A stretch of 64,000 nt of DNA from Gemmatimonadales bacterium (GCA_035631315.1 DASQIZ010000069.1:409-64408); one strand, 5' to 3'. Counted from the first letter of the stretch, positions 40,573 to 51,625 are shown. Numbers and translations are program-made. Notes: generated by a model from the sequence alone, not told the origin.

Positions 40573-40576
<4 letters not shown>

Positions 40577-41805
40577 TTGAGGTGCGCGATGATCGCGTCG
40601 GCGAAAGTGGAGGTCGGGACTTCGGTGGCGCCGGGCATCTGCCGGGCGAGGTCGTACGTGACCTTCTTGGCGGCGAGCGCCCCTTCGATGCCGGCGATGA
40701 TCGCCTTGCCGGCCGCTCCCCAGCCGATCTCCTCGAGCATCATCACGCCCGACAAGATCACACTGCCGGGGTTCACCTTGTCCTGCCCGGCGTACTTCGG
40801 CGCGGTCCCGTGCGTGGCCTCGAACACCGCGAAGCCGTCCCCGACATTCGCCCCGGGCGCCATGCCCAACCCGCCGACCTGCGCGGCGCAGGCATCCGAC
40901 AGATAGTCACCGTTCAGATTCGACGTCGCGATCACCGAGTACTCGTCAGGGCGCAGCAGGACCTGCTGGAACATCGCGTCGGCGATGCGGTCCTTCATGA
41001 CGATCTTGCCCTTCCCGCCCTCCGCTTCCGTAACCGTCTGCGTGGCGAACTTCTCCTTCGCGAGCTGGTAGCCCCAATCGCGGAACGCGCCCTCGGTGAA
41101 TTTCTGAATGTTCCCCTTGTGGACGAGGGTCACCGAGGCCTTGCCATGATCCACGGCGTATTGAATCGCCTTGGCCACCAGACGCTGAGATCCGAACTTG
41201 GACATCGGCTTCACGCCGATGGCGCTACCCTGCCGCAGCGTCTTCACGCCGAGCTGGTCGACGAGAAAGTCCCGCAACTTGTCTGCTTTCTCGCTCCCCG
41301 CTTCGAATTCGATCCCGGCGTACACATCCTCGATGTTCTCGCGGAAGATCACGACGTCGAGCCTCTGCGGCTCGCGCACCGGAGCCGGGACGCCGGCGAA
41401 CCACCGCACCGGCCGGATGCAGGCGTAGAGGTCGAGGAGCTGACGGAGGGCGACGTTGAGGGACCGCATCCCGCCACCCACCGGCGTGGTCAGTGGTCCC
41501 TTTATGGCGACCCGGTTCTCGCGGATCACCGCCAGCGTCTCGTCGGGCAGCCAGTTGCCGGTCGCCTTGAACGCCTTCTCGCCGGCCAGGACTTCCTTCC
41601 AGACGATGGCCCGCTTGCCGCCGAACGCCTTGGCGACGGCCGCGTCGAGCACGCGCTGCGAGGCCCGCCAGATGTCGGGACCGGTGCCGTCGCCTTCGAT
41701 GAATGGGATGATAGGGTGATCGGGAACGACCCAACGGCCACTCTGGTAGTCGATCTTGCCGCCGGCTTGAGGCACCGCGACCTCATCTCGAAGGGTTAGG
41801 GCCAT
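40573..41805 (-). CDS. icd: NADP-dependent isocitrate dehydrogenase
   Basis: [39 protein letters not shown]. Start at ATG 41805 (MALTLRDEV); the 61 upstream codons are rejected. Confidence 0.9.
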
Positions 41806-41823
41806 CCACAGGAAGCATGAGTC

Positions 41824-41831
41824 TATATATT
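41824..41831. promoter_or_regulatory. AT-rich TATATATT box in the 35-bp icd / small-ORF divergent gap (possible shared -10 element)
   Basis: It is the only AT-rich octamer in an otherwise GC-rich region. It lies 10 nt upstream of ATG 41841 and ~19 nt upstream of the icd ATG on the other strand. Confidence 0.25.
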
Positions 41832-41840
41832 CCCCTACCG

Positions 41841-42206
41841 ATGCCGCAACGACGGTCGCCGCTTCTCGCGCTGATCCTGACCCTGGCCCTGGTGGCGTAC
41901 CCCGCCACGATGCCTCTGGCCATGGCCGCCGAAGTGCCGGCGTCCATGCCGATGTCGATGGATGGGCACACCCCGTGCCCTCACGCACATCAGCCCGCGC
42001 ACCATCACCACGCCATCAGCACGTGTTGCGCGGGTGCCTGCGGCACCTGCCCCATCATCTCCGTCTCCGCAGGCGTTCCCCCCCGGATCGGCCCTTCCGC
42101 CCGGGTGATGGTGTTCCAGAACGACCTCCCCGCGTCGCCTGAACAGTCTGCCGTTCGTCGTCTCCCCTATTCCATCGGTCCTCCTCCCGCTTCCAGTCTC
42201 GCCTAG
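41841..42206 (+). CDS. secreted Met/His/Cys-rich small protein (DUF2946-like, putative copper-binding)
   Basis: Signal-like [29 protein letters not shown], then [22 protein letters not shown] and [12 protein letters not shown]. High GC3 in this frame; lies directly upstream of the TonB receptor. Confidence 0.5.
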
Positions 42207-42279
42207 CACACCCACAACTGGGCCGTCTGGACTCCGGGACCGCGCGCTCGCGCTCCCGCTGACTTGCGTGAGGACACAC

Positions 42280-44280
42280 ATGAAGAAGACGTTGCTGAGC
42301 CTGGGCACGCTGTGCGCGTGCGCCACGTTCTCTTTGCCGGCGCAACAGAGCGACACGCTCCATGTGCACGGTGACAGCCTCAATCACCACCCCATCACCC
42401 TTGACGCGATCACGGTGACGGCGGCGCCCGTCAAACCGCACGAGCCCGCGACGACGGTGAAGATCTCGCCGTCCGTCATTCAGCAGACGCCGGCCACCGA
42501 CGCCTACGACCTGCTCCGGCAGGTCTCGGGGATCGAGGTGCACGAGCAGGGCCAGGGGCCCGGTTTCGCGTCGGACGCGTCGGTGCGCGGCTTTTCGTCG
42601 GACCACTCGACCGACATCGCGCTCTGGGTGGATGGCGTGCCGAACAACGAGCCCGTGAACGGACACGCCGAGGGCTACAACGACTGGAATCTGCTCTTTC
42701 CGGAGGCGATCTCGGAGATCGACGTCCTCAAAGGACCCACGAGTGCGGTGTACGGCAACTTCGCCTTCGCCGGCGTGGTGAACGTCCAGACGCTCGAGCG
42801 CACCGACGGAACGTCTCTCTATCTGGATCCCGGCTCGTACGGTCATTGGGGTGGAACGCTGCTCACGGGCTACGACCGGGGAACGAATGGCGGAGTCTTC
42901 GGCCTGCGCGGTGAGCATGAGGATGGCTGGCGGCCCAACAGCGCCTACGACCTCGGCCAGGCGCACGCGCGCGTGGTTCAGGGGCTCTCGTCCGTGACGA
43001 CGCTCGACGCCGGCGTCGAGCTGTACTCCACCCAGTGGAAATCCCCGGGCTTCCTCTCCGACAGCGCGTTCCAGGCCAGTGATTTCGGCCGGGTCGAGAA
43101 CCCGACCGACGGTGGCTACAAGCATCGCGCGCAGGAACGTGTGAGCTTCCGCGTGCTGGCGGGTCCCTCACTGCTCTGGCGGACGACGTTCTACTCCACA
43201 CAAGGCCGCTGGCAGCTCTACCTCACCATTCCTCCGGAGTCTGGTGGCGGCGAAGGCACGGGCAGTCAGACCGAGGAAGAGGACAAGCGGTACGGCCTGG
43301 GCATGACGAGCGCGCTGACCTGGTATCTCGATCGCGCGGAGATCACCGTGGGCACCGAAACGCGGTACGATCACTCGCGGTATGAAAACTGGTTCACGAC
43401 GGACCGCGTTCGCGATTCCGCCCAGACGCTGGTGAATGCGCATCAGGGCTCGGCCGCGCTCTTCGCCCAATCGAGCGAGGACCTCGGCCCGCACTTCCGC
43501 CTGTCCCTCGGTGGCCGGATCGATTTCCAGAATACCGGCGCAACACCGGACAGCGGCCCGGCCGCGAGTCACGGCAAGGCCATCTTCTCACCGAAGCTCG
43601 GCCTGCTCTATCACCTCCCGGTGGCGGGTGACGTCTACGCCAACGTGTCTCGCGGGTTCCGGCAGACCGACGGCGTGATCGAAAACCCATACCTGCCGTT
43701 CATTACGGTCTGGGCGTACGAGGCAGGCTTCAAGGTGGACGGGAGCGTCGTGAACGCGAGCATCGCGCTCTTTCGGAACGACGTGAGCAATGAGCAGACC
43801 TTCAATCCCATCCTCCTCACCAGCGTGAGCGGAGGCTCGAGCCGGCGCCAAGGCGTCGAGGTGGATTTCCTCGCGCGTCTGGCACCGTCGGTGCACCTCA
43901 CCGGTGACTGGACGGTCACAGACGCGAAGTACGACCACCTGATCACCGAGACCGGTGACACGCTGAACGGCGCGCGCGTCTTCAATACGGCGAAGTTCAC
44001 CGGCATCTCGGCGCTCGAAGTGGCGCCCGACAGCGCCCCCTGGCGGCTGCGGCTGTCGACGAACGTCGTCGGTCCATACAGCCCCCTTGATGAGCCGGGC
44101 GTGACTCTCCCGACCTATGCGCTGTTCCATCTGTCTGGTGGGCTACGGGTCGGGCGTTCCGAGCTGCAGGTGGGAGTCCGGAATCTCTTGAACCACGAGT
44201 ATCCGGAGCTGGAAGCGGGCGGGTTTGTGACGCCGGGTGAGCCGAGGTCCGTTTTCGGGACGATCCGCTACACGTTCTAA
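42280..44280 (+). CDS. TonB-dependent outer-membrane receptor (metal/chelate type suspected)
   Basis: Signal MKKTLLSLGTLCACATFSLPAQ, plug (DAITVTA..VSGIEV..VRGF..), barrel, and terminal ..GTIRYTF. There is a His run HVHGDSLNHH at the mature N-terminus. Confidence 0.85.
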   Translation: MKKTLLSLGTLCACATFSLPAQQSDTLHVHGDSLNHHPITLDAITVTAAPVKPHEPATTVKISPSVIQQTPATDAYDLLRQVSGIEVHEQGQGPGFASDASVRGFSSDHSTDIALWVDGVPNNEPVNGHAEGYNDWNLLFPEAISEIDVLKGPTSAVYGNFAFAGVVNVQTLERTDGTSLYLDPGSYGHWGGTLLTGYDRGTNGGVFGLRGEHEDGWRPNSAYDLGQAHARVVQGLSSVTTLDAGVELYSTQWKSPGFLSDSAFQASDFGRVENPTDGGYKHRAQERVSFRVLAGPSLLWRTTFYSTQGRWQLYLTIPPESGGGEGTGSQTEEEDKRYGLGMTSALTWYLDRAEITVGTETRYDHSRYENWFTTDRVRDSAQTLVNAHQGSAALFAQSSEDLGPHFRLSLGGRIDFQNTGATPDSGPAASHGKAIFSPKLGLLYHLPVAGDVYANVSRGFRQTDGVIENPYLPFITVWAYEAGFKVDGSVVNASIALFRNDVSNEQTFNPILLTSVSGGSSRRQGVEVDFLARLAPSVHLTGDWTVTDAKYDHLITETGDTLNGARVFNTAKFTGISALEVAPDSAPWRLRLSTNVVGPYSPLDEPGVTLPTYALFHLSGGLRVGRSELQVGVRNLLNHEYPELEAGGFVTPGEPRSVFGTIRYTF

Positions 44281-44291
44281 GCTTCGCGGCG

Positions 44292-44389
44292 AACAGCGCC
44301 GGGCCCTTCCGTCGTCTGCCGTGCGCGTTCAGGATCAAATCGGACCCCGTGAAAGGCGCACAGAGGCCGACTCCGGGCCCGGCGCTGTT
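44292..44389. terminator. perfect 15-bp inverted repeat (AACAGCGCCGGGCCC / GGGCCCGGCGCTGTT) spanning the convergent gene gap
   Basis: Arms at 44292..44306 and 44375..44389, 68 nt apart, with partial inner complementarity. They fill the gap between the TBDR stop (44280) and the B2-like stop (44396). Confidence 0.4.
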
Positions 44390-44395
44390 TACGTC

Positions 44396-44911
44396 TTAGC
44401 GAGTTGCCTCAAGCGGTTCAGGAAACCGGGCAATTGGCGTGTGGACTGCTGCATGGTCCTCGTCAGCTTCCAAGTATGGTCTGTCGCTCGATGTCAGCCA
44501 CGCGTGGGCGCTCACGTCGCCACCCCCACGAACGCCGATCCACAACTGAACTGGCCTGCCGGCGTGCCGCAGGAGCGCGTACAGCACCACGGCGCGCCGG
44601 AGGCAGGTTCGCCGCCAGGGCCACGGGAGTGCATTGAGGATCTTGTCGACCCACACGGCGAGTGCCTGGTCATCAAGAGACACCGAAGCCGGCGAGCTTG
44701 CCGAGATCAGCGGGAGGAGGCGGGACAGCGAGAAGATTTCGAGCAGCGGTGGCGCTGCGAGGGCGACGAGTAGTGCCCGGAGGCGCCAGACCGGCGGGAG
44801 CGTCAGTGCTCCGCGACGGGTGCGGGCTTCAGCGTCTTGAGCAGATCGACGGCGTGGTACCCGTTCAGGTCCGCAATGTAGAGCGAGTCGCCGTAGTTCA
44901 CGGTGGGCCAC
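44396..44911 (-). CDS. orphan lasso-peptide-type B2 protein homologue (Transglut_core3-like cysteine protease)
   Basis: ..WPWRRTCLRRAVVLYALLRHAGRPVQLWIGVR....SAHAWLT....YLEADED shows the Cys/His/Asp order and context typical of B2/McjB-C-terminal-domain proteins. The start is unresolved (GTG 44911, CTG 44806 or GTG 44683). Confidence 0.55.
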   Translation of the reverse strand: MAHRELRRLALHCGPERVPRRRSAQDAEARTRRGALTLPPVWRLRALLVALAAPPLLEIFSLSRLLPLISASSPASVSLDDQALAVWVDKILNALPWPWRRTCLRRAVVLYALLRHAGRPVQLWIGVRGGGDVSAHAWLTSSDRPYLEADEDHAAVHTPIARFPEPLEATR

Positions 44912-45837
44912 CGCTCTGGGTGATCGGGCACGAAGAGCGCCATCATCTCGCCCATCACGTCCCGCAGCGTGTCCCTGGTCGGATTCTCGTATGTCGCAAT
45001 CAGTCGATACGGATGCCCGGCATGGATTCTCAAGCCCCGGTCCCACAGCGCGAGGACATGGAACGGGAGCTCCTTGATCTCGCCCGAATCGCCGAGGACC
45101 GCATTGGTCTGCACCAGGACCTTGCCGGTCTCCGCATCTTCGAGCCGAACTCCCCGGCCATAGTCATGCAGGTGACCACCTGCGCCCAGGAGCCACCCTG
45201 AGAGCGGGAACGTAATGATCGCGGACTTCTCGTGGCGGCCGGGCGGCACATCGTAGGTGTTCGACTGACCGTAGTGCGCGTTCACGTCCAGGTTCACCGG
45301 GAACGTGGACAGTGGCTGTGGCAATTCGTTCGCCGGCAACCACAGGAGGTTGATCCGGAGATAGACGCCGTGCTGCGCGGTGGTCCCGCCGTTGTGCCAC
45401 ATGATGTACAGCGCGAGTCGCTGGCCCGGAGACAACGGCGTCCCGACCGACGCGGGAGCTACCACCGCCGCCGGCGTCAGCCCCGCCGCCGCCATCCGCT
45501 CGGCCACCGGATCGAAGAGCGTGCGGCGATCGAGGTTGATCAGGGTGAAGTGATGGAGCAGATCGCGCGGGAGCGGCTTGCCGTGCGCGTCGATCACCTC
45601 CGACTCGAATCCACGGAACCAACCCTTCACGGGCCAGGCGAACGCCTGCGCCAAGGTGTCGGGCATCATCGCATCCATCGACATGCCTTCCATCGGCGGC
45701 ATCGGCTCCAGGTCGAACGGACCGGCGACGACCACCACACGGTGATGTTTCTCGTCGAGGGTCACGCCCGGCTTCGGCGCCTGCGCGGACGCCGTGGCGC
45801 CCGCGAGCAGCAGTCCGATGGTCAGGAGACGACGCAT
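44803..45837 (-). CDS. secreted Met-rich protein, paralogue 1, with a PHM/DBH-like copper-ligand motif pattern
   Basis: Signal MRRLLTIGLLLAGATASAQA. Met-rich LEPMPPMEGMSMDAMMPD. HH95-96 (DLLHHFTL), H148, H222xH224 (GGHLHDYG), M295/298/299 (VMGEMMALF). The CDS call is solid; the function is inference. Confidence 0.5.
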   Translation of the reverse strand: MRRLLTIGLLLAGATASAQAPKPGVTLDEKHHRVVVVAGPFDLEPMPPMEGMSMDAMMPDTLAQAFAWPVKGWFRGFESEVIDAHGKPLPRDLLHHFTLINLDRRTLFDPVAERMAAAGLTPAAVVAPASVGTPLSPGQRLALYIMWHNGGTTAQHGVYLRINLLWLPANELPQPLSTFPVNLDVNAHYGQSNTYDVPPGRHEKSAIITFPLSGWLLGAGGHLHDYGRGVRLEDAETGKVLVQTNAVLGDSGEIKELPFHVLALWDRGLRIHAGHPYRLIATYENPTRDTLRDVMGEMMALFVPDHPERWPTVNYGDSLYIADLNGYHAVDLLKTLKPAPVAEH

Positions 45838-45838
45838 G

Positions 45839-46888
45839 CTAGCGACGGCTCCCTTGCATCGCGGCTCGGGAGGCCTGCGTCAGCGAGTCGGGCAACGTGG
45901 TGATGCCGTATGTCGCGAGGTCTGCCCAGAGATCTTTGCTCGCGTAGTCCATCTTCGGCCACTTCGAGAGGTCATCCGGCGCAAAGATCGCCATGATCTC
46001 GCCCATGGCTTCCGACAACGTGTCCTTCGTGGTGTTGTCGTATGCGGCGGTCATCGTGTAGGGATGATCGGCCTCGATGTGCAATCCCTGCCCGGTCACC
46101 GCGAAGAGTTTCCGCGTCATCCCGAGCATCTGTCCGGCCGAGTCGAGTACCGGGCGCAGCTCGAAGAGCACCTTCCCCGTCACGGAGTCCTGGAGCTTAA
46201 TGTAGGAGCCGTACTCGTGGAGGTGGCCACCGGCGCCGAGCATCCGTCCGGAAATCGGGAAGCGGAACGTGCGTGTGCGCTCGGTCCTGCCGGGGGGCAC
46301 GGGATACATGTTGTCCGCACCCGGGAAGAGGTCCACATCCATCACCACGGGGAGTGCCGAGGTGGGGGGCGGTTGCATGTTCGCCGGCATATAGAGAAGG
46401 GTGAGCTTGACGTACACCCCCTTCACGGTATCGGGGTGACTATTGAACCACATCATGTACACACCCATCCGGGTCCCGCGCGTGAGCGGAGCGCCGATCG
46501 ACTTGGGCGCGACGATGTCTTCGTTCTGGTAACGTGCCGAGGCGAGACGTTCGGCGAAAGCGTCAAAGAGCGTGCGGCGGTCGAAGTTGAGAAGAGTGAA
46601 ATGGTGGATCAGGTCGCGCGGCATGTCGCCGCCGGCGCCATTGATGGCCCTCACGTGGAAGCCGTAGAACCACCCCTGCTCCGGCCAGACGAAATACGAC
46701 GCCATCTCGCCCATGTGGTCCATGGACATGTCCATCCCCATCATCTCCATCCGGTGCCCCATCGGCGGCAGCGTGTAGGGTCCGGCGGTGATGGTGATGG
46801 TGTGGTGCTTCCGGTCGACGACGACTCCGGTCTTGATGGAGTCCGTCGCGGGAGCTAGGAGGGTCAGCGCAGCAAGTAGTGGCAGCAT
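45839..46888 (-). CDS. secreted Met-rich protein, paralogue 2, with a PHM/DBH-like copper-ligand motif pattern
   Basis: Alignable over its full length with paralogue 1. PPMGHRMEMMGMDMSMDHMGEM; HH95-96 (DLIHHFTL), H151, H222xH224 (GGHLHEYG), M295/299 (AMGEIMAIF). Its stop is 1 nt from the paralogue 1 start. Confidence 0.5.
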   Translation of the reverse strand: MLPLLAALTLLAPATDSIKTGVVVDRKHHTITITAGPYTLPPMGHRMEMMGMDMSMDHMGEMASYFVWPEQGWFYGFHVRAINGAGGDMPRDLIHHFTLLNFDRRTLFDAFAERLASARYQNEDIVAPKSIGAPLTRGTRMGVYMMWFNSHPDTVKGVYVKLTLLYMPANMQPPPTSALPVVMDVDLFPGADNMYPVPPGRTERTRTFRFPISGRMLGAGGHLHEYGSYIKLQDSVTGKVLFELRPVLDSAGQMLGMTRKLFAVTGQGLHIEADHPYTMTAAYDNTTKDTLSEAMGEIMAIFAPDDLSKWPKMDYASKDLWADLATYGITTLPDSLTQASRAAMQGSRR

Positions 46889-46896
46889 GTCAGCCT

Positions 46897-46922
46897 AACG
46901 CGTTGGTCGGGAGTCGGGTTCC
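46897..46922 (-). promoter_or_regulatory. ECF-sigma-like promoter candidate GGAAC-N17-CGTT immediately upstream of the paralogue operon
   Basis: The minus strand reads GGAACccgactcccgaccaacgCGTTaggctgacATG. The -10-like box ends 8 nt before the ATG and no SD is visible, so the transcript may be leaderless. Confidence 0.2.
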
Positions 46923-46972
46923 AGGCACGAAAATACAACGGAAGGGTGTTTCCCTGCAGTCCCAAGCACAGA

Positions 46973-46998
46973 GGCCCGGAAGCTTTCGCTCCCGGGCC
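46973..46998 (-). terminator. short GC hairpin downstream of the lipoprotein gene (GGCCCGG-N12-CCGGGCC)
   Basis: A 7-bp GC stem 20 nt after stop 47018 on the minus strand. The tail is only weakly T-rich. Confidence 0.3.
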
Positions 46999-47017
46999 CT
47001 TACGATCTAAGAGGACT

Positions 47018-47839
47018 TCAGGTCGTCTGGCTCAGCTGCACGCAGCGGCCCAGGAGTACGGGATCGCCAAAGGCGGTGCCATTACCGTCCGTGAAGGCTG
47101 CGAAGATCCATGGGTTTCCCCCCACCCCCCCGAGGACCGGTTGCTTCGGGAACGAGAAGTCCATGCCCGCCGGAAGAATCGTCATGGTCTGACTCCGCAC
47201 CGCGGAATGCGTCAGCTTCACGTTGTTGCTGAAGATCATCTGCATGCCCAGCCCTTCGAACGCCATGTCGGCATCCATGCTGATGAAGGGACCGGGATTG
47301 TTGTTGCACTCGGAGACCGCGAAGTCCGCGGAGACGTCGGCGCGCGGGTCTTGCGCGGAGGCAAAGTCGAGGCGCGAGCCCTGCACGCAGCGCCCCACAA
47401 AGATCGCGTCGCTTGCCGGCGCGCCGCTCGCGTCGATGAACTGCACCCAGATAAAGGGGTTGCCACCCACGCCGCCGAGCACCGGCTGCTTTGGGATGAC
47501 GATGTCCGTGCCCGCCGGCTGCAGAACGGTCTCGACATCCTTGTCCACCGTATACGTGTGGGTGTCCTTCAGATTGTTGCTGAAGAGCATGTCGACGCCG
47601 AACCCCGCCAACGCTGCGGTGCCGGAGAGCGTGATCTGCGGGCCGGGACTGTTGCTGCAGCCATCGATCGTGAGCGCGAAGTTCACGGGGACGGCAACTC
47701 CAGTGAGGCTGACATGCGGCAAGGACGACACGTTGCTCAGCGTAGACGTGCGGCTGGGGGCGGTTGGCAGGGCCGAATGCGGATTTTCACACGCGGCCAG
47801 CAGCAACACCCCAACTCCGAGATACAGGGTCCTCAACAT
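47018..47839 (-). CDS. lipoprotein with two tandem ~100-115 aa repeats of an unrecognised domain
   Basis: Lipobox LLLAAC. Start at ATG 47839 with GGGAGGA upstream. Repeat motifs: C-(S/N)N(S/N)PGP .. FSNN(L/V)K..TH .. PKQPVLGGVGGNP(F/W)I .. GRCVQ. Confidence 0.7.
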   Translation of the reverse strand: MLRTLYLGVGVLLLAACENPHSALPTAPSRTSTLSNVSSLPHVSLTGVAVPVNFALTIDGCSNSPGPQITLSGTAALAGFGVDMLFSNNLKDTHTYTVDKDVETVLQPAGTDIVIPKQPVLGGVGGNPFIWVQFIDASGAPASDAIFVGRCVQGSRLDFASAQDPRADVSADFAVSECNNNPGPFISMDADMAFEGLGMQMIFSNNVKLTHSAVRSQTMTILPAGMDFSFPKQPVLGGVGGNPWIFAAFTDGNGTAFGDPVLLGRCVQLSQTT

Positions 47840-48025
47840 TGGTTCCTCCCAAGTGGTGTGGTCCGTCACGGGACGCACCGCCGTGGGGGGCAATCGGCAT
47901 GCCTAGGGAAATACCTCCGAGTATTCCGCCTAACGCGCCGACGCATCGCGCGCACGCCACGGGGCAGCGCGGCAGCAGACGCGCTGCGGCGTTCTCAGAG
48001 AAATGGGTCAGACGTCCGAGTGGGG

Positions 48026-48088
48026 TGCCCGAGGAGAGAGTCGAACTCTCACGGCGTTGCCCCTCCTCCGCGAATGCCATTCCGGCGG
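48026..48088 (-). pseudogene. decayed tRNA-Leu copy (T-arm, variable arm and 3' acceptor retained; anticodon arm and 5' acceptor lost)
   Basis: 48026..48054 is identical to 49119..49147. 37 of 38 nt are identical through the variable arm, and the D-loop GGAATGGCA is also retained. No anticodon stem-loop and no complementary 5' acceptor strand. Confidence 0.7.
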
Positions 48089-49065
48089 CGCGTGGCGGGG
48101 GGCGCGAAGTTAGGCCGCTTGGGAGGACAGGTTGTGATGGGGACGGAGCCCGACCCGGCACAGAACACGCCTTTCAGGCCGTCTGCAAACATACCGGTGA
48201 GGGTACTGAGGTAGAAGGACGCGCCCGCCCCGATCGTGCTGCATAGTGTTCCACCGTTGAGCGACACATCGGCCGACTCGAGATCGGTCAGAGTGACGTT
48301 GGTGACGTAGACCTCGTCCACACCCTGCCCCGTGTTCTCCAGGCGCCCGAAATCCAGGTGCGCCGTCAACCCGACGGTGGGGATGGACCCGGCCGCGGTA
48401 TTCACCGCGAGGCCGCACTGGATGCCCGCGGCTTCGAGCGGGATATCCACGGTGGTCGACACGGCCAGGCGGGCCGTGATGTCGACCTGGAGCGCGACAG
48501 GATTCCCCGCCACCGCCAGGCTCTCTCGGACCACGGTCACCGCGACCGGAGACCCGGGAACGCCGCCGGAGCAATTGACGGTGATGGTTCCGCCGCAATT
48601 TGCCGCGACGGTGAACGCCGATCCGGTGAGAAACTCGCCCACGGCGTACGCGGTGACGGAGTCCGCCGACAGCGGGCGCGCGTAAGCGAAGGCCTTGAAC
48701 GTCGTGCTCTCCGCTCGGACCGCCAGAACCGCCACCGCCCGCTGGAGGCCCACCGTGTCCCCCATGGTCCAGAGGGTCGTCGCTCGACCCAGCGAGTCGG
48801 TGGAAGCCGATGGGGTGCCGACGCTCCCGCCCCCCGACAGTACGGCAAAGGACACCGGGACATTCGGCACGCCGTGGCCGCTCGAGTCCATCACCACGGC
48901 CACGAGCGGCTTCGCCAGTGACGCAGCCCAGTAACCGGTCTGCGTGTCCCCTGCCGCCGTGACGACGGCGACGGGCACGTGCGACGTGTTGGAGGGACCG
49001 GTGGCGGTCGAGGAGCACCCACCGAGGACGAACCCGACGAGAGTGGCAGTGAGTTTGGCGCGCAT
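48049..49065 (-). CDS. lipoprotein with N-terminal Ig-like (Big-type) domain, function unknown
   Basis: Lipobox FVLGGC. Ig-like segment ..VAVVMDSSGHGVPNVPVSFAVLSGGGSVG..TDSLGRATTLWT... The last 13 codons and the stop lie inside the tRNA relic. Confidence 0.65.
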   Translation of the reverse strand: MRAKLTATLVGFVLGGCSSTATGPSNTSHVPVAVVTAAGDTQTGYWAASLAKPLVAVVMDSSGHGVPNVPVSFAVLSGGGSVGTPSASTDSLGRATTLWTMGDTVGLQRAVAVLAVRAESTTFKAFAYARPLSADSVTAYAVGEFLTGSAFTVAANCGGTITVNCSGGVPGSPVAVTVVRESLAVAGNPVALQVDITARLAVSTTVDIPLEAAGIQCGLAVNTAAGSIPTVGLTAHLDFGRLENTGQGVDEVYVTNVTLTDLESADVSLNGGTLCSTIGAGASFYLSTLTGMFADGLKGVFCAGSGSVPITTCPPKRPNFAPPATRRRNGIRGGGATP

Positions 49066-49118: not shown

Positions 49119-49201
49119 TGCCCGAGGAGAGAGTCGAACTCTCACGGGGTTGCCCCCGGGGGATTTTGAGTCCCCTGCGTCTGCCATTCCGCCACTCGGG
49201 C
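49119..49201 (-). tRNA. tRNA-Leu (anticodon CAA)
   Basis: Hand-folded cloverleaf: acceptor GCCCGAG/CTCGGGC, anticodon stem GGGGA/TCCCC with loop CTCAAAA, long variable arm CGGGG-GCAA-CCCCG, T-arm GAGAG-TTCGACT-CTCTC, discriminator A. No encoded CCA. Confidence 0.9.
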
Positions 49202-49286: not shown

Positions 49287-49718
49287 GTGGAACGCAGAGC
49301 AGATGGCATGACCGGGGCGCGGTGGCTCAGAAGTGGACCCCCGTTCCCCGAGGCCGAGTTGATGATCGTGGCAACGTATCGTCGTGGCATTTCGTCCGAC
49401 GTCTACATCTCCACGCTCGACCCGATTCTCGCCCCGCGCCTCGGCGGCGCCCTGGTGCGGTCCGCGGTGCACCTCTACACCCCGGAGCCCGTCCCTTTCC
49501 CCTCCCCAGCCCAGATGCGGGTCGGGGGATGGGACTGGTCTTTCGTTCCCGTGGTGCTGGAAGCGAAGCAAGTCGCCGTGGCCGCGCGACACGCCGACCA
49601 GGGATTCGAGTTCTTGAAGATTTATTCGCCCACCCGACTGGTGGAAGGGCTGGGATTGACCGAGGGGTGCCTGGTGAACGTCGAGTTCCTCTCGGGGGTC
49701 CATCTCGACATGCCCTAG
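49287..49718 (+). CDS. hypothetical protein (no recognisable family)
   Basis: High GC3 in this frame and a non-Arg-biased composition. The likely start is ATG 49362 (MIVATYRRG..). Its stop overlaps the kinase stop in the palindrome CTAG. Confidence 0.45.
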   Translation: MERRADGMTGARWLRSGPPFPEAELMIVATYRRGISSDVYISTLDPILAPRLGGALVRSAVHLYTPEPVPFPSPAQMRVGGWDWSFVPVVLEAKQVAVAARHADQGFEFLKIYSPTRLVEGLGLTEGCLVNVEFLSGVHLDMP

Positions 49719-51625
49719 GTGAGCAGGTCCTCGATCCCGGCCGTGCGCAGGAGCCGTGCGTAACGCGGATCGCGGGCCAATCCATGGTGGTCGTACGGAA
49801 GGTCGTTCAACACGCGGCGCAGCCGCCCTGGCCGCCGGTGATAGGCCCGTTCCACCCAATCCATGGCCTGCGTCCATTCCCCAAGCTCCGCGAGCACGAT
49901 GAGGATCTTGTCGGCCAACTGGCGCGTGCTGCTGCGGTCCTCGAAGGCATCTTCCTGCTGCGCGCGAGCCTGAAGCTCCGCGAGCTCCCGCCGCAAGTCA
50001 CGATCGCGCGCCTCGATCCAGCCGAACTCGGTCGCGTCAGCGGTCACCTGGGCGATCCGCTCTTTCGCGCCACGCACTCCCAGCAGCATCCGGCGCGCGT
50101 CCAGCGCGTCGTCGTGACGGCCGGCGCGATGACAGCTCATCTCGAGACGCTCCAGAGCGGCGTCGTACCGCGGCAGCAGCCGGAGGGCCTGACGCAGCGG
50201 ACCGATCGCCTCGTCGTAGCGGCCCATCGCCATGAGTACGTCGGCCAGACCGACGTGCATGAACGGCGCCTTCGGAGCGAGGTGCGTCGCCTCCCGCATG
50301 TGTTCCAGAGCTTCGGGCAGGCGTCCCGCGATCCGGAGCCAAGCACCGTAGAGGCGATGTCCCTCGGCCAGGTCGGGGGCCAGCTCGACACCCCGCGCGA
50401 GCTCGGTGCCGGCCATCTCGAAATCGTCTTCCCAATACAGGAACATCGTCCCGAGAGCCACGTGCAAGTCGCCGAGGGAGTCGTCGACCGCGAGCGCGCG
50501 CAGCCTGAGCTCACGGACCTTCGGCTTCATCTCCTCCGGATCGCTGAACCCCCTGACGCCAAGGAGGAGCAGAATGTCGGCGAGTGCGACCAACGCCGCG
50601 GCGCTGCCCGGTGCCAACGCCACCGCCTTCTCCCCGTACACCCGCGCCATCAACAGTTTGTCCTGGGCGCCCTCCCCACCCTGCATCCCGTTGCGGAATA
50701 ACTCGCGCACCTTCGCCGTCAGCTCGCGGACCTCGGGTGGGTCCCCCGGCTTCTCGGGGGCCGGGCGCTTCACGGGCGCCGAAGGACGACGCGGACCCGG
50801 CGCATCGAGGGGACGCAGGGCGTCCAGCACAGCCGCCGCATCCTTGGGACGCTGATCGCGATCCTTGGCGAGGAGTTGCTCCACGAGGGCCGCGAGCCCG
50901 GCATCGACGTCGGCGCGAGTGTCCCGCAGCGGTGGGACGTCGTCGGTGAGGTGCGCCGCGAGCGTGGCCATGGCGGTCGGACGCACGAACGGCGGCTGCC
51001 CGGCGAGCAGCTCGTACGCCACGCATCCGAGGCTATACAGATCGGCGCGTCCATCGACCGCCTGGTCACCGGACGCCTGCTCGGGGCTCATGTAGAAGAC
51101 GGTGCCGACGATCGTGCCCGTGGCGGTGAGCGGTGTATCGGCGAGAGCGACCCGCTCCTGCGTCGCGATCCCGAAATCCGCGAGCAGCGCGCGTCCACCG
51201 TACCAGAAAATGTTTTCAGGCTTCACATCGCGGTGGACGACACCCATCCCGTGCGCATAGGCCAGGGCTTCCGCGGTATCGGCCAGGATTCGGGTGACGA
51301 CGCGGGGTTCGAGGGCCTTCTTCCCTTCGAGCTGCGCACGCAGCGTAGCGCCGTCGATAAACGGCATCACGTAATACAGCCAACCGTCCGACTCGCCGGA
51401 GTCGAAGAGCGGCACGATGTTCGGATGGACGAGCTGCGCGGTGAGGCGGATCTCGCGCAGGAAGCGCTCGGCACCGAGCGCCTTCGAGAGATCGGGCGTA
51501 AGCACCTTGATGGCCACGTCCCGCTCGAGCGCGTTGTCCCGCGCCAGCAGCACCGTGCCCATCCCGCCGCGCCCCAGCTCCCGCGACACCGTGAATCGGC
51601 TGGGAAGGACCGGGCGGAGCGTCAC
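49715..51625 (-). CDS. serine/threonine protein kinase with C-terminal TPR repeats
   Basis: GRGGMGTV, AIKVL, HRDVKPENI, DFG, SPEQ motifs, then about 300 aa of TPR-like helices. The GTG start is GTGA-coupled to the upstream gene. Confidence 0.85.
   Translation of the reverse strand: MTLRPVLPSRFTVSRELGRGGMGTVLLARDNALERDVAIKVLTPDLSKALGAERFLREIRLTAQLVHPNIVPLFDSGESDGWLYYVMPFIDGATLRAQLEGKKALEPRVVTRILADTAEALAYAHGMGVVHRDVKPENIFWYGGRALLADFGIATQERVALADTPLTATGTIVGTVFYMSPEQASGDQAVDGRADLYSLGCVAYELLAGQPPFVRPTAMATLAAHLTDDVPPLRDTRADVDAGLAALVEQLLAKDRDQRPKDAAAVLDALRPLDAPGPRRPSAPVKRPAPEKPGDPPEVRELTAKVRELFRNGMQGGEGAQDKLLMARVYGEKAVALAPGSAAALVALADILLLLGVRGFSDPEEMKPKVRELRLRALAVDDSLGDLHVALGTMFLYWEDDFEMAGTELARGVELAPDLAEGHRLYGAWLRIAGRLPEALEHMREATHLAPKAPFMHVGLADVLMAMGRYDEAIGPLRQALRLLPRYDAALERLEMSCHRAGRHDDALDARRMLLGVRGAKERIAQVTADATEFGWIEARDRDLRRELAELQARAQQEDAFEDRSSTRQLADKILIVLAELGEWTQAMDWVERAYHRRPGRLRRVLNDLPYDHHGLARDPRYARLLRTAGIEDLLT

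Follow-up and report, generated by a model that had tools for sequence, protein, structure and literature searches.

The textbook examples of non-coupled binuclear copper monooxygenases are peptidylglycine alpha-hydroxylating monooxygenase (PHM), dopamine beta-hydroxylase (DBH) and tyramine beta-monooxygenase (TBM), which are treated as eukaryotic enzymes. The catalytic core of PHM (1PHM, 1SDW, 3MLJ) is a two-domain double jelly roll that works outside the cytoplasm and carries HH...H in domain 1 and HxH...M in domain 2; DBH and TBM (4ZEL) share this catalytic-core fold and the ligand set. In PHM, the CuH site is formed by H107, H108 and H172 and the CuM site by H242, H244 and M314, the inter-copper distance is 11 Å, and Arg240 forms a salt bridge with the peptide carboxylate (PMC9064607). 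In a 2022 survey of double-jelly-roll proteins, the eukaryotic branch of clan CL0612 was given as PHM and the bacterial one as PNGase F (PMC8812541). Here, we describe two adjoining genes, A and B, in a stretch of 64,000 nt (the window) from a Gemmatimonadales bacterium, a member of a soil phylum. A preliminary description had read their products as PHM/DBH-type copper monooxygenases, and this reading is supported by the structure models and ligand conservation reported below. We lean towards reading the two products as exported two-copper oxygenases of the PHM type that act on a substrate other than peptidylglycine.

Predicted fold and proposed copper-ligand positions of A and B

A and B were found as tandem open reading frames (ORFs) of 344 and 349 codons at the positions previously assigned to them (Table 1). 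They lie head-to-tail on the minus strand, and the TAG stop of B directly abuts the ATG of A; because these stop and start codons are adjacent, the B-A pair is probably co-translated. The products are 45% identical over 324 residues (E 2e-98). GC content at third codon positions is 0.85 in both genes (the genome is 66% GC), and this pattern, together with the many homologues, indicates that both are real genes. A Sec signal had been claimed for both proteins. The N-terminus of A (MRRLLTIGLLLAGATASAQA) is a classical Sec-type signal, whereas that of B (MLPLLAALTLLAPATD) is hydrophobic and has no basic n-region, so that a signal peptide and export are only plausible for B. An additional KHH pair noted near the mature N-termini is present at residues 30-32 of A and 27-29 of B; however, it is not conserved across the family in an alignment of 82 representatives that are 24-46% identical to A. 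The conservation counts given below refer to these 82 sequences.

AlphaFold2 models built with family alignments were confident, all-beta and two-domain for both proteins, with a predicted local distance difference test (pLDDT) of 84.6 and a predicted template modelling score (pTM) of 0.81 for A, and 87.6 and 0.84, respectively, for B. The signal region and the Met-rich loop were poorly ordered, and nothing else was. In Foldseek searches against the PDB, the top 26 matches of A and the top 31 matches of B were all PHM or DBH (best E 5.8e-9 and 1.1e-9, respectively, each with probability 1.00). The PHM/DBH matches spanned E 1e-9 to 3e-7, with template modelling (TM) scores of up to 0.53 despite the inter-domain hinge; the PHM catalytic core was the best PDB match of both proteins, and 4ZEL gave the top query-normalised TM-score for A (0.53). 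The next matches, namely PNGase F, DUF2961/GH172 and viral capsid proteins, appeared at E 1e-5 or worse. PNGase F itself was well behind PHM/DBH (E about 1.5e-4 or weaker, TM about 0.35), and PNGase F and the viral double-jelly-roll capsids were 4-5 orders of magnitude weaker. These models and matches bear out the double beta-sandwich expected of a PHM relative, and we consider it very probable that A and B have a PHM-type fold. Identity to PHM in the structural alignments is about 11%.

The ligand pattern that had been read from the sequence was then located by script. HH at residues 95-96 and H222-L-H224 are present in both proteins, and the Met reported at 295-299 corresponds to M295, M298 and M299 in A and to M295 and M299 in B. 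In A, the ligands follow the same order as in PHM. The spacings are also PHM-like, as had been noted: 127 residues separate HH from HxH (135 in PHM), and 71 separate the last His from the Met (70 in PHM). M295 was assigned as the CuM Met by spacing only. Among the representatives, H95 is conserved in 81/82, H96 in 80/82, H222 in all 82, H224 in 81/82 and M295 in 81/82, and all six ligand positions are invariant in a 26-sequence alignment of a sister clade. Because it is conserved in 82 diverse representatives, the pattern is far beyond chance. The conservation check proposed in the preliminary description came out in favour of its reading, with five of the six proposed ligands near-invariant; the exception is the third CuH His, which B and about half of the family lack. 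We also aligned the family, using hhalign, with a PHM profile built from the 1SDW sequence and its homologues; the two were collinear, with HH placed onto the HH of PHM and HxH onto its HTH. We consider it likely that copper is bound at the conserved residues.

Each protein also carries the Met-rich insert described earlier, which a script check placed at residues 43-60 of A and 41-62 of B. This Met/His-rich loop is disordered, is added relative to PHM and is inserted after the second strand; in the main clade of the family its sequence is MPPMEDHAMMDLGMSHD. In A, the loop has a pLDDT of about 56-79, and its MPPM...M motif occurs in 39-43 of 45 close relatives. In B, pLDDT falls below 50 at residues 46-58, the loop sequence is identical among B orthologues, and Met accounts for 7.4% of the whole protein. 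A loop with at least three Met and His residues was found in 49 of the 82 relatives, and a C-terminal tail with at least three His in 43. Such loops recall the Cu(I)-binding Met motifs of CueO, PcoA/CopA, CusF and Ctr1, in which MxM, MxxM or MH clusters likewise lie in a flexible exported segment. However, the Met segment of A and B is a loop within a PHM-type core, whereas in the CueO-like cases it belongs to a multicopper oxidase or a transporter.

A family in Gemmatimonadota and its sister clade

At least 674 relatives were recovered in one search, and a HMMER scan returned at least 1,258 representatives at 50% identity. All named members are annotated as "hypothetical protein", except one fusion protein named for its PAP2 domain, and they come from Gemmatimonadales, Gemmatimonadaceae, Candidatus Palauibacterales and unclassified Gemmatimonadota. 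The 79 genome loci retrieved were all Gemmatimonadota metagenome-assembled genomes, the plasmid collection contained no homologue match, and no description of a bacterial PHM-type family was found in the open literature. These results point to an unnamed phylum-wide family, seen so far only in Gemmatimonadota; that is, the family is bacterial and restricted to one phylum, whereas PHM is treated as eukaryotic. Tandem copies (2-3) of the gene recur in several lineages. Members of the main clade (40-45% identical to A) are monocistronic and lie in a conserved neighbourhood beside L21/L27, an NlpC/P60 protein and pantothenate kinase. A conserved 308-aa "divergent upstream gene" that emerged from neighbourhood clustering was discarded, as it was apparently an antisense ORF overlapping the target gene in the loci inspected.

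Sequence searches gave little beyond the family itself. Pfam and NCBIfam scans of A and B returned no match, and searches of PDB sequences with A (phmmer) and with the family profile did not find PHM; the sole match, 6-pyruvoyl-tetrahydropterin synthase (E 1.4), was rejected as chance. A homologue search seeded with remote clades retrieved only Gemmatimonadota hypothetical proteins with no Pfam label. The only recurrent Pfam signal was SURNod19 (PF07712), which matched 3 of the 82 members weakly and was absent for A, B and the family consensus. In the best case (P0246; 15.2 bits against a gathering score of 25, E 0.0095, 27 residues), residues 86-112, the strand leading into HH, matched profile positions 34-62. 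SURNod19/MtN19 is a plant family without assigned function whose members are likewise secreted and have about 380-400 aa. In bean, NOD19 is a miR398 target that goes down in copper deficiency and up in copper excess, with Cu/Zn-SOD (PMC3882225; PMC10326430). The weak match could hint at a wider PHM-like copper-protein superfamily that includes NOD19.

The sister clade (P0530; 80 metagenome loci retrieved; L083 5381-12785, L084, L085-L164) has a different neighbourhood. Here, the PHM-like gene shares its strand with the gene for a cupredoxin lipoprotein of the plastocyanin family (PF00127; TIGR02656, E 1e-19; C-x2-H-x4-M motif). The PHM-like gene is also accompanied by a type-I phosphodiesterase (PF01663), which is the upstream same-strand neighbour in 41 of 68 loci. 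This group is convergent with an operon encoding PAP2_3, an SDR reductase-epimerase, a GNAT-like protein and a serine-palmitoyltransferase-like enzyme (NF047600, E 3.5e-161, below the equivalog cut-off); in 67/69 loci, PAP2_3 is the gene next downstream, and by gene content the operon looks like one for sphingolipid synthesis. In four assemblies, a PHM-like domain is fused to a C-terminal PAP2 phosphatase (P0126/P0413, L165 6001-7674). A further candidate fusion, P0210, joins an N-terminal GT2 glycosyltransferase to a PHM-like domain and is possibly a gene-calling artefact. In a periplasm that lacks ascorbate, a CuH site would require a one-electron donor of just the type that a cupredoxin represents. 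The cupredoxin and phosphodiesterase beside the serine-palmitoyltransferase operon, together with the PAP2 fusion, suggest that the head groups of sphingolipids or phospholipids are oxidatively modified. A broader proposal, which we put forward tentatively and regard as doubtful, is that a large, hitherto unrecognised periplasmic family of PHM-type copper monooxygenases is fed by cupredoxin and not by ascorbate and acts on cell-envelope molecules, with A and B as a two-subunit variant. In that two-subunit arrangement, B would have given up the canonical electron-transfer site.

Copper oxygenase or another exported protein

If A and B are PHM-type oxygenases, the C-domain triad H222, H224 and M295 would bind the O2-activating CuM, and the N-domain HH pair, with H148 in A, would bind the electron-accepting CuH. 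The substrate would sit in the cleft between the domains, where one of its C-H bonds would lose a hydrogen to a Cu(II)-superoxo species at CuM. Two electrons would be supplied by an external periplasmic donor, such as the cupredoxin encoded in the sister-clade gene cluster; unlike that of DBH and TBM, the reductant is unlikely to be ascorbate. The Met/His-rich loop may capture periplasmic Cu(I) and load or protect the sites, as in CueO, PcoA/CopA and Ctr1. Like PHM, A and plausibly B would be located outside the cytoplasm, in the periplasm. Because B lacks the third CuH His, it may be a variant with an altered electron-transfer site, acting as a specialised or partner subunit. As to the reaction itself, we regard the chances for and against monooxygenase chemistry as evenly balanced.

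Several observations weigh against this reading. Membership in Pfam Cu2_monooxygen / Cu2_monoox_C, to which the preliminary description had pointed, failed by sequence: PF01082/PF03712 gave no match to A or B at E <=1, nor to any of the 82 members or the family consensus at E <=10. The hhalign comparison with PHM reached a probability of 8-9% (P 0.004) over the whole length and was not significant for the C-domain alone (P 0.33); the N-domain alone gave P 2.8e-4, against 0.069 for a reversed-profile control. A forced global alignment to the PHM profile was meaningless and was set aside. Because the profile statistics are weak, the case rests on the fold and on ligand conservation, not on sequence homology. 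The third CuH ligand is also in question. A His had been reported at 148 in A and 151 in B, and both residues exist; however, they are not equivalent. H148 of A (MWHN context) is His in only 44/82 relatives and absent in 38/82, and its column is Phe in B and all five orthologues checked (6/6). H151 of B lies three residues downstream of F148 and is Arg in one B orthologue.

Further differences concern the scaffold, the substrate site and the electron supply. PHM has several disulfides, whereas A and B contain no cysteine at all, and the mature region has none in 65/82 relatives; the DOMON domain, dimerisation domain and disulfides of DBH/TBM are likewise missing. The peptide anchor Arg240 of PHM has no counterpart in the family, since 68/82 relatives have Gly and 11/82 have Ser (79/82 together) two residues ahead of the first CuM histidine. 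Therefore, peptidylglycine would not be the substrate, and A and B would not be peptide-amidating enzymes. In the window, no ascorbate or other reductant system, no cupredoxin and no homologue of the sister-clade partner genes were found. The linkage seen in the sister clade may itself be inherited synteny, as the organisms are related.

We considered non-catalytic copper binding as an alternative, that is, buffering, sequestration or hand-over of periplasmic copper on a PHM-like scaffold that would serve copper uptake or tolerance together with the neighbouring TonB-dependent receptor and a His/Cys-rich protein. Proteins that handle Cu(I) typically have disordered loops rich in Met and His and tails rich in His. 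Half of the family has a degenerate CuH site, and the window offers no reductant partner. In addition, the receptor adjoins the pair in five related loci (L002, L004-L007), and it and the 129-aa His/Cys/Met-rich ORF, which are kept beside the pair in close relatives, form what is suggestive of a metal-uptake pair by gene content. However, the receptor synteny is confined to closely related genomes and is not evidence of a functional link with A and B. Genes for copper homeostasis are absent from the housekeeping neighbourhood of the main clade. Moreover, the CuM triad is near-invariant over deep divergence, beyond what a metal sponge needs, and it is the loops and tails that vary, not the core ligands. 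We therefore regard a purely copper-handling role as unlikely.

The gene downstream of the pair raises another alternative, in which A and B oxidise or hydroxylate a ribosomal peptide that is processed by a B2-like protease and then exported. The preliminary description had placed the pair in an operon with a protease. A lasso-peptide-B2-like gene for a putative Cys protease does lie downstream, but it is linked to the pair in some close relatives only. Its domain match is above the curated cut-off (NF033537, 61.5 bits against 33), the Cys of TCLRRA and the His of AHAWL are putatively catalytic, and the protein is 67% identical to the B2 protein of L002. No ATG, GTG or TTG follows the A stop codon. 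The conserved N-terminus TLPPVWRL at the protein level and the CTGA junction overlapping the A TGA stop, which is conserved in L003 and L005, suggest that the gene starts with CTG at 44806; L005 has an extra in-frame TTG 21 nt downstream of this junction. The window, L003 and L005 have B2 alone after the pair. L002 and L007 have a longer set there: a 34-aa ORF, an HprK/ScmC-like protein, PqqD, B2 and a nucleotidyltransferase. B2 is replaced by an unrelated gene in L004 and L006.

The overlap of the B2-like gene with the A stop codon, the gene set of L002 and L007, which resembles those for ribosomally synthesised and post-translationally modified peptides (RiPPs), and the fact that PHM itself acts on peptides all fit such a tailoring role. 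Nevertheless, we judge it improbable. In tblastn searches with the PqqD, kinase-like, nucleotidyltransferase and 34-aa ORF proteins of L002, the window held B2 only, with no precursor homologue; the bulk of the family is monocistronic and has no RiPP genes. B2-type enzymes are cytoplasmic, whereas A is exported, the Arg that binds the peptide carboxylate in PHM is absent, and the unrelated gene of L004 and L006 breaks the linkage. A lasso-peptide cluster as such was rejected, as the window contains no cyclase, PqqD/B1 or precursor and L004 and L006 do not show the B2 linkage; a lasso cyclase is not present even in L002.

Least probable of all, and to our minds very hard to sustain, is a metal-independent double-jelly-roll protein of the PNGase F/DUF2961 type (a glycan- or envelope-binding amidase or hydrolase with structural His and Met residues), for although PNGase F, GH172/DUF2961 and capsid proteins are among the fold matches and PHM and the bacterial PNGase F branch share clan CL0612 (PMC8812541), those matches are 10^4 to 10^5 times weaker than PHM/DBH, with lower TM-scores, and the conserved residues are the exact PHM metal ligands in PHM order and spacing.

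If A and B are indeed exported PHM-type copper oxygenases, they would form a branch, in bacteria, of an enzyme type that is normally taken to be eukaryotic, possibly with new chemistry in the form of copper-dependent hydroxylation in the bacterial periplasm. A name could then be given to more than 1,000 clusters that are now annotated as "hypothetical proteins" in a phylum abundant in soil, and the plant NOD19 proteins may be illuminated. If copper is bound as predicted, this disulfide-free family, in which the CuM triad is kept, would be a candidate for expression in E. coli and a simpler model system for inter-copper electron transfer across the cleft and for the question of why the Met ligand is essential. 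With the third CuH His lacking from about half of its members, the family would also serve as a natural experiment on the CuH site.

Feature coordinates and neighbouring genes

The features discussed above are listed in Table 1, with positions counted from the first letter of the window.

Table 1. Coordinates of genes, proposed ligand codons and Met/His-rich loops in the window
Feature	Position	Strand	Description
Paralogue B	45839..46888	-	349 aa, PHM-fold protein (predicted), export plausible; HH95/96, F148, H222/H224, M295
Paralogue A	44803..45837	-	344 aa, Sec-type signal, PHM-fold (predicted); H95, H96, H148, H222, H224, M295
A H95-H96 codons	45550..45555	-	Proposed CuH pair (= PHM H107/H108); hhalign in register with PHM HH
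A H148 codon	45394..45396	-	Proposed third CuH ligand (= PHM H172); 44/82 conserved
A H222-L-H224 codons	45166..45174	-	Proposed CuM histidines (= PHM H242/H244); hhalign onto PHM HTH
A M295 codon	44953..44955	-	Proposed CuM Met (= PHM M314); spacing; hhalign placement inexact
B H95-H96 codons	46601..46606	-	Script check of residues
B H222-L-H224 codons	46217..46225	-	Script check of residues
B M295 codon	46004..46006	-	Script check of residues
Met-rich loop of A, residues 43-60	45658..45711	-	LEPMPPMEGMSMDAMMPD
Met/His-rich loop of B, residues 41-62	46703..46768	-	PPMGHRMEMMGMDMSMDHMGEM
Lasso-peptide-B2-like transglutaminase-core protein	44396..44806	-	Putative Cys protease; PF13471, E 6e-15
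TonB-dependent receptor	42268..44280	+	Plug and beta-barrel domains; convergent with operon
129-aa exported His/Cys/Met-rich ORF	41817..42206	+	Weak DUF6153 match; directly upstream of receptor

The genes that replace or extend the B2-like gene in related loci were also recorded. The gene following the pair in L004 (1589-2158) and L006 (2791-3360) encodes 189 aa beginning MHKGRLEAFSD and has no NCBIfam match; we take it to resemble a DUF1211/TMEM175-type protein. The RiPP-like set of L002 (9199-12102) and L007 (2896-5637) is cyclase-less; its 34-aa ORF ends in ...GTPGPNS, and it includes NTP_transf_5. As a whole, the set recalls the "HPr-rel-A system".

A search of 44200-47200 gave no sigma-70-like promoter and no intrinsic terminator, and no Rfam element besides a tRNA gene was found near the operon. 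On the far side of the receptor, the isocitrate dehydrogenase ORF (40573-41988, minus strand) is listed with roughly 60 additional N-terminal aa, which overlap the His-rich ORF on the opposite strand; its true start is probably near MALTLRDEV. Upstream of B, a 291-aa putative lipoprotein (47018-47893, minus strand; LLLAAC lipobox) consists of two internal repeats that both end in ...GRCVQ. Neither Pfam nor NCBIfam gave a match for it, and in L005, the closest relative, it is not conserved upstream of the pair. Finally, the tRNA gene (49119-49201, minus strand; Rfam RF00005, 54 bits) is flanked by a Ser/Thr kinase-TPR gene (49715-51625) and a gene for a 338-aa Big_1-like lipoprotein (48049-49065).

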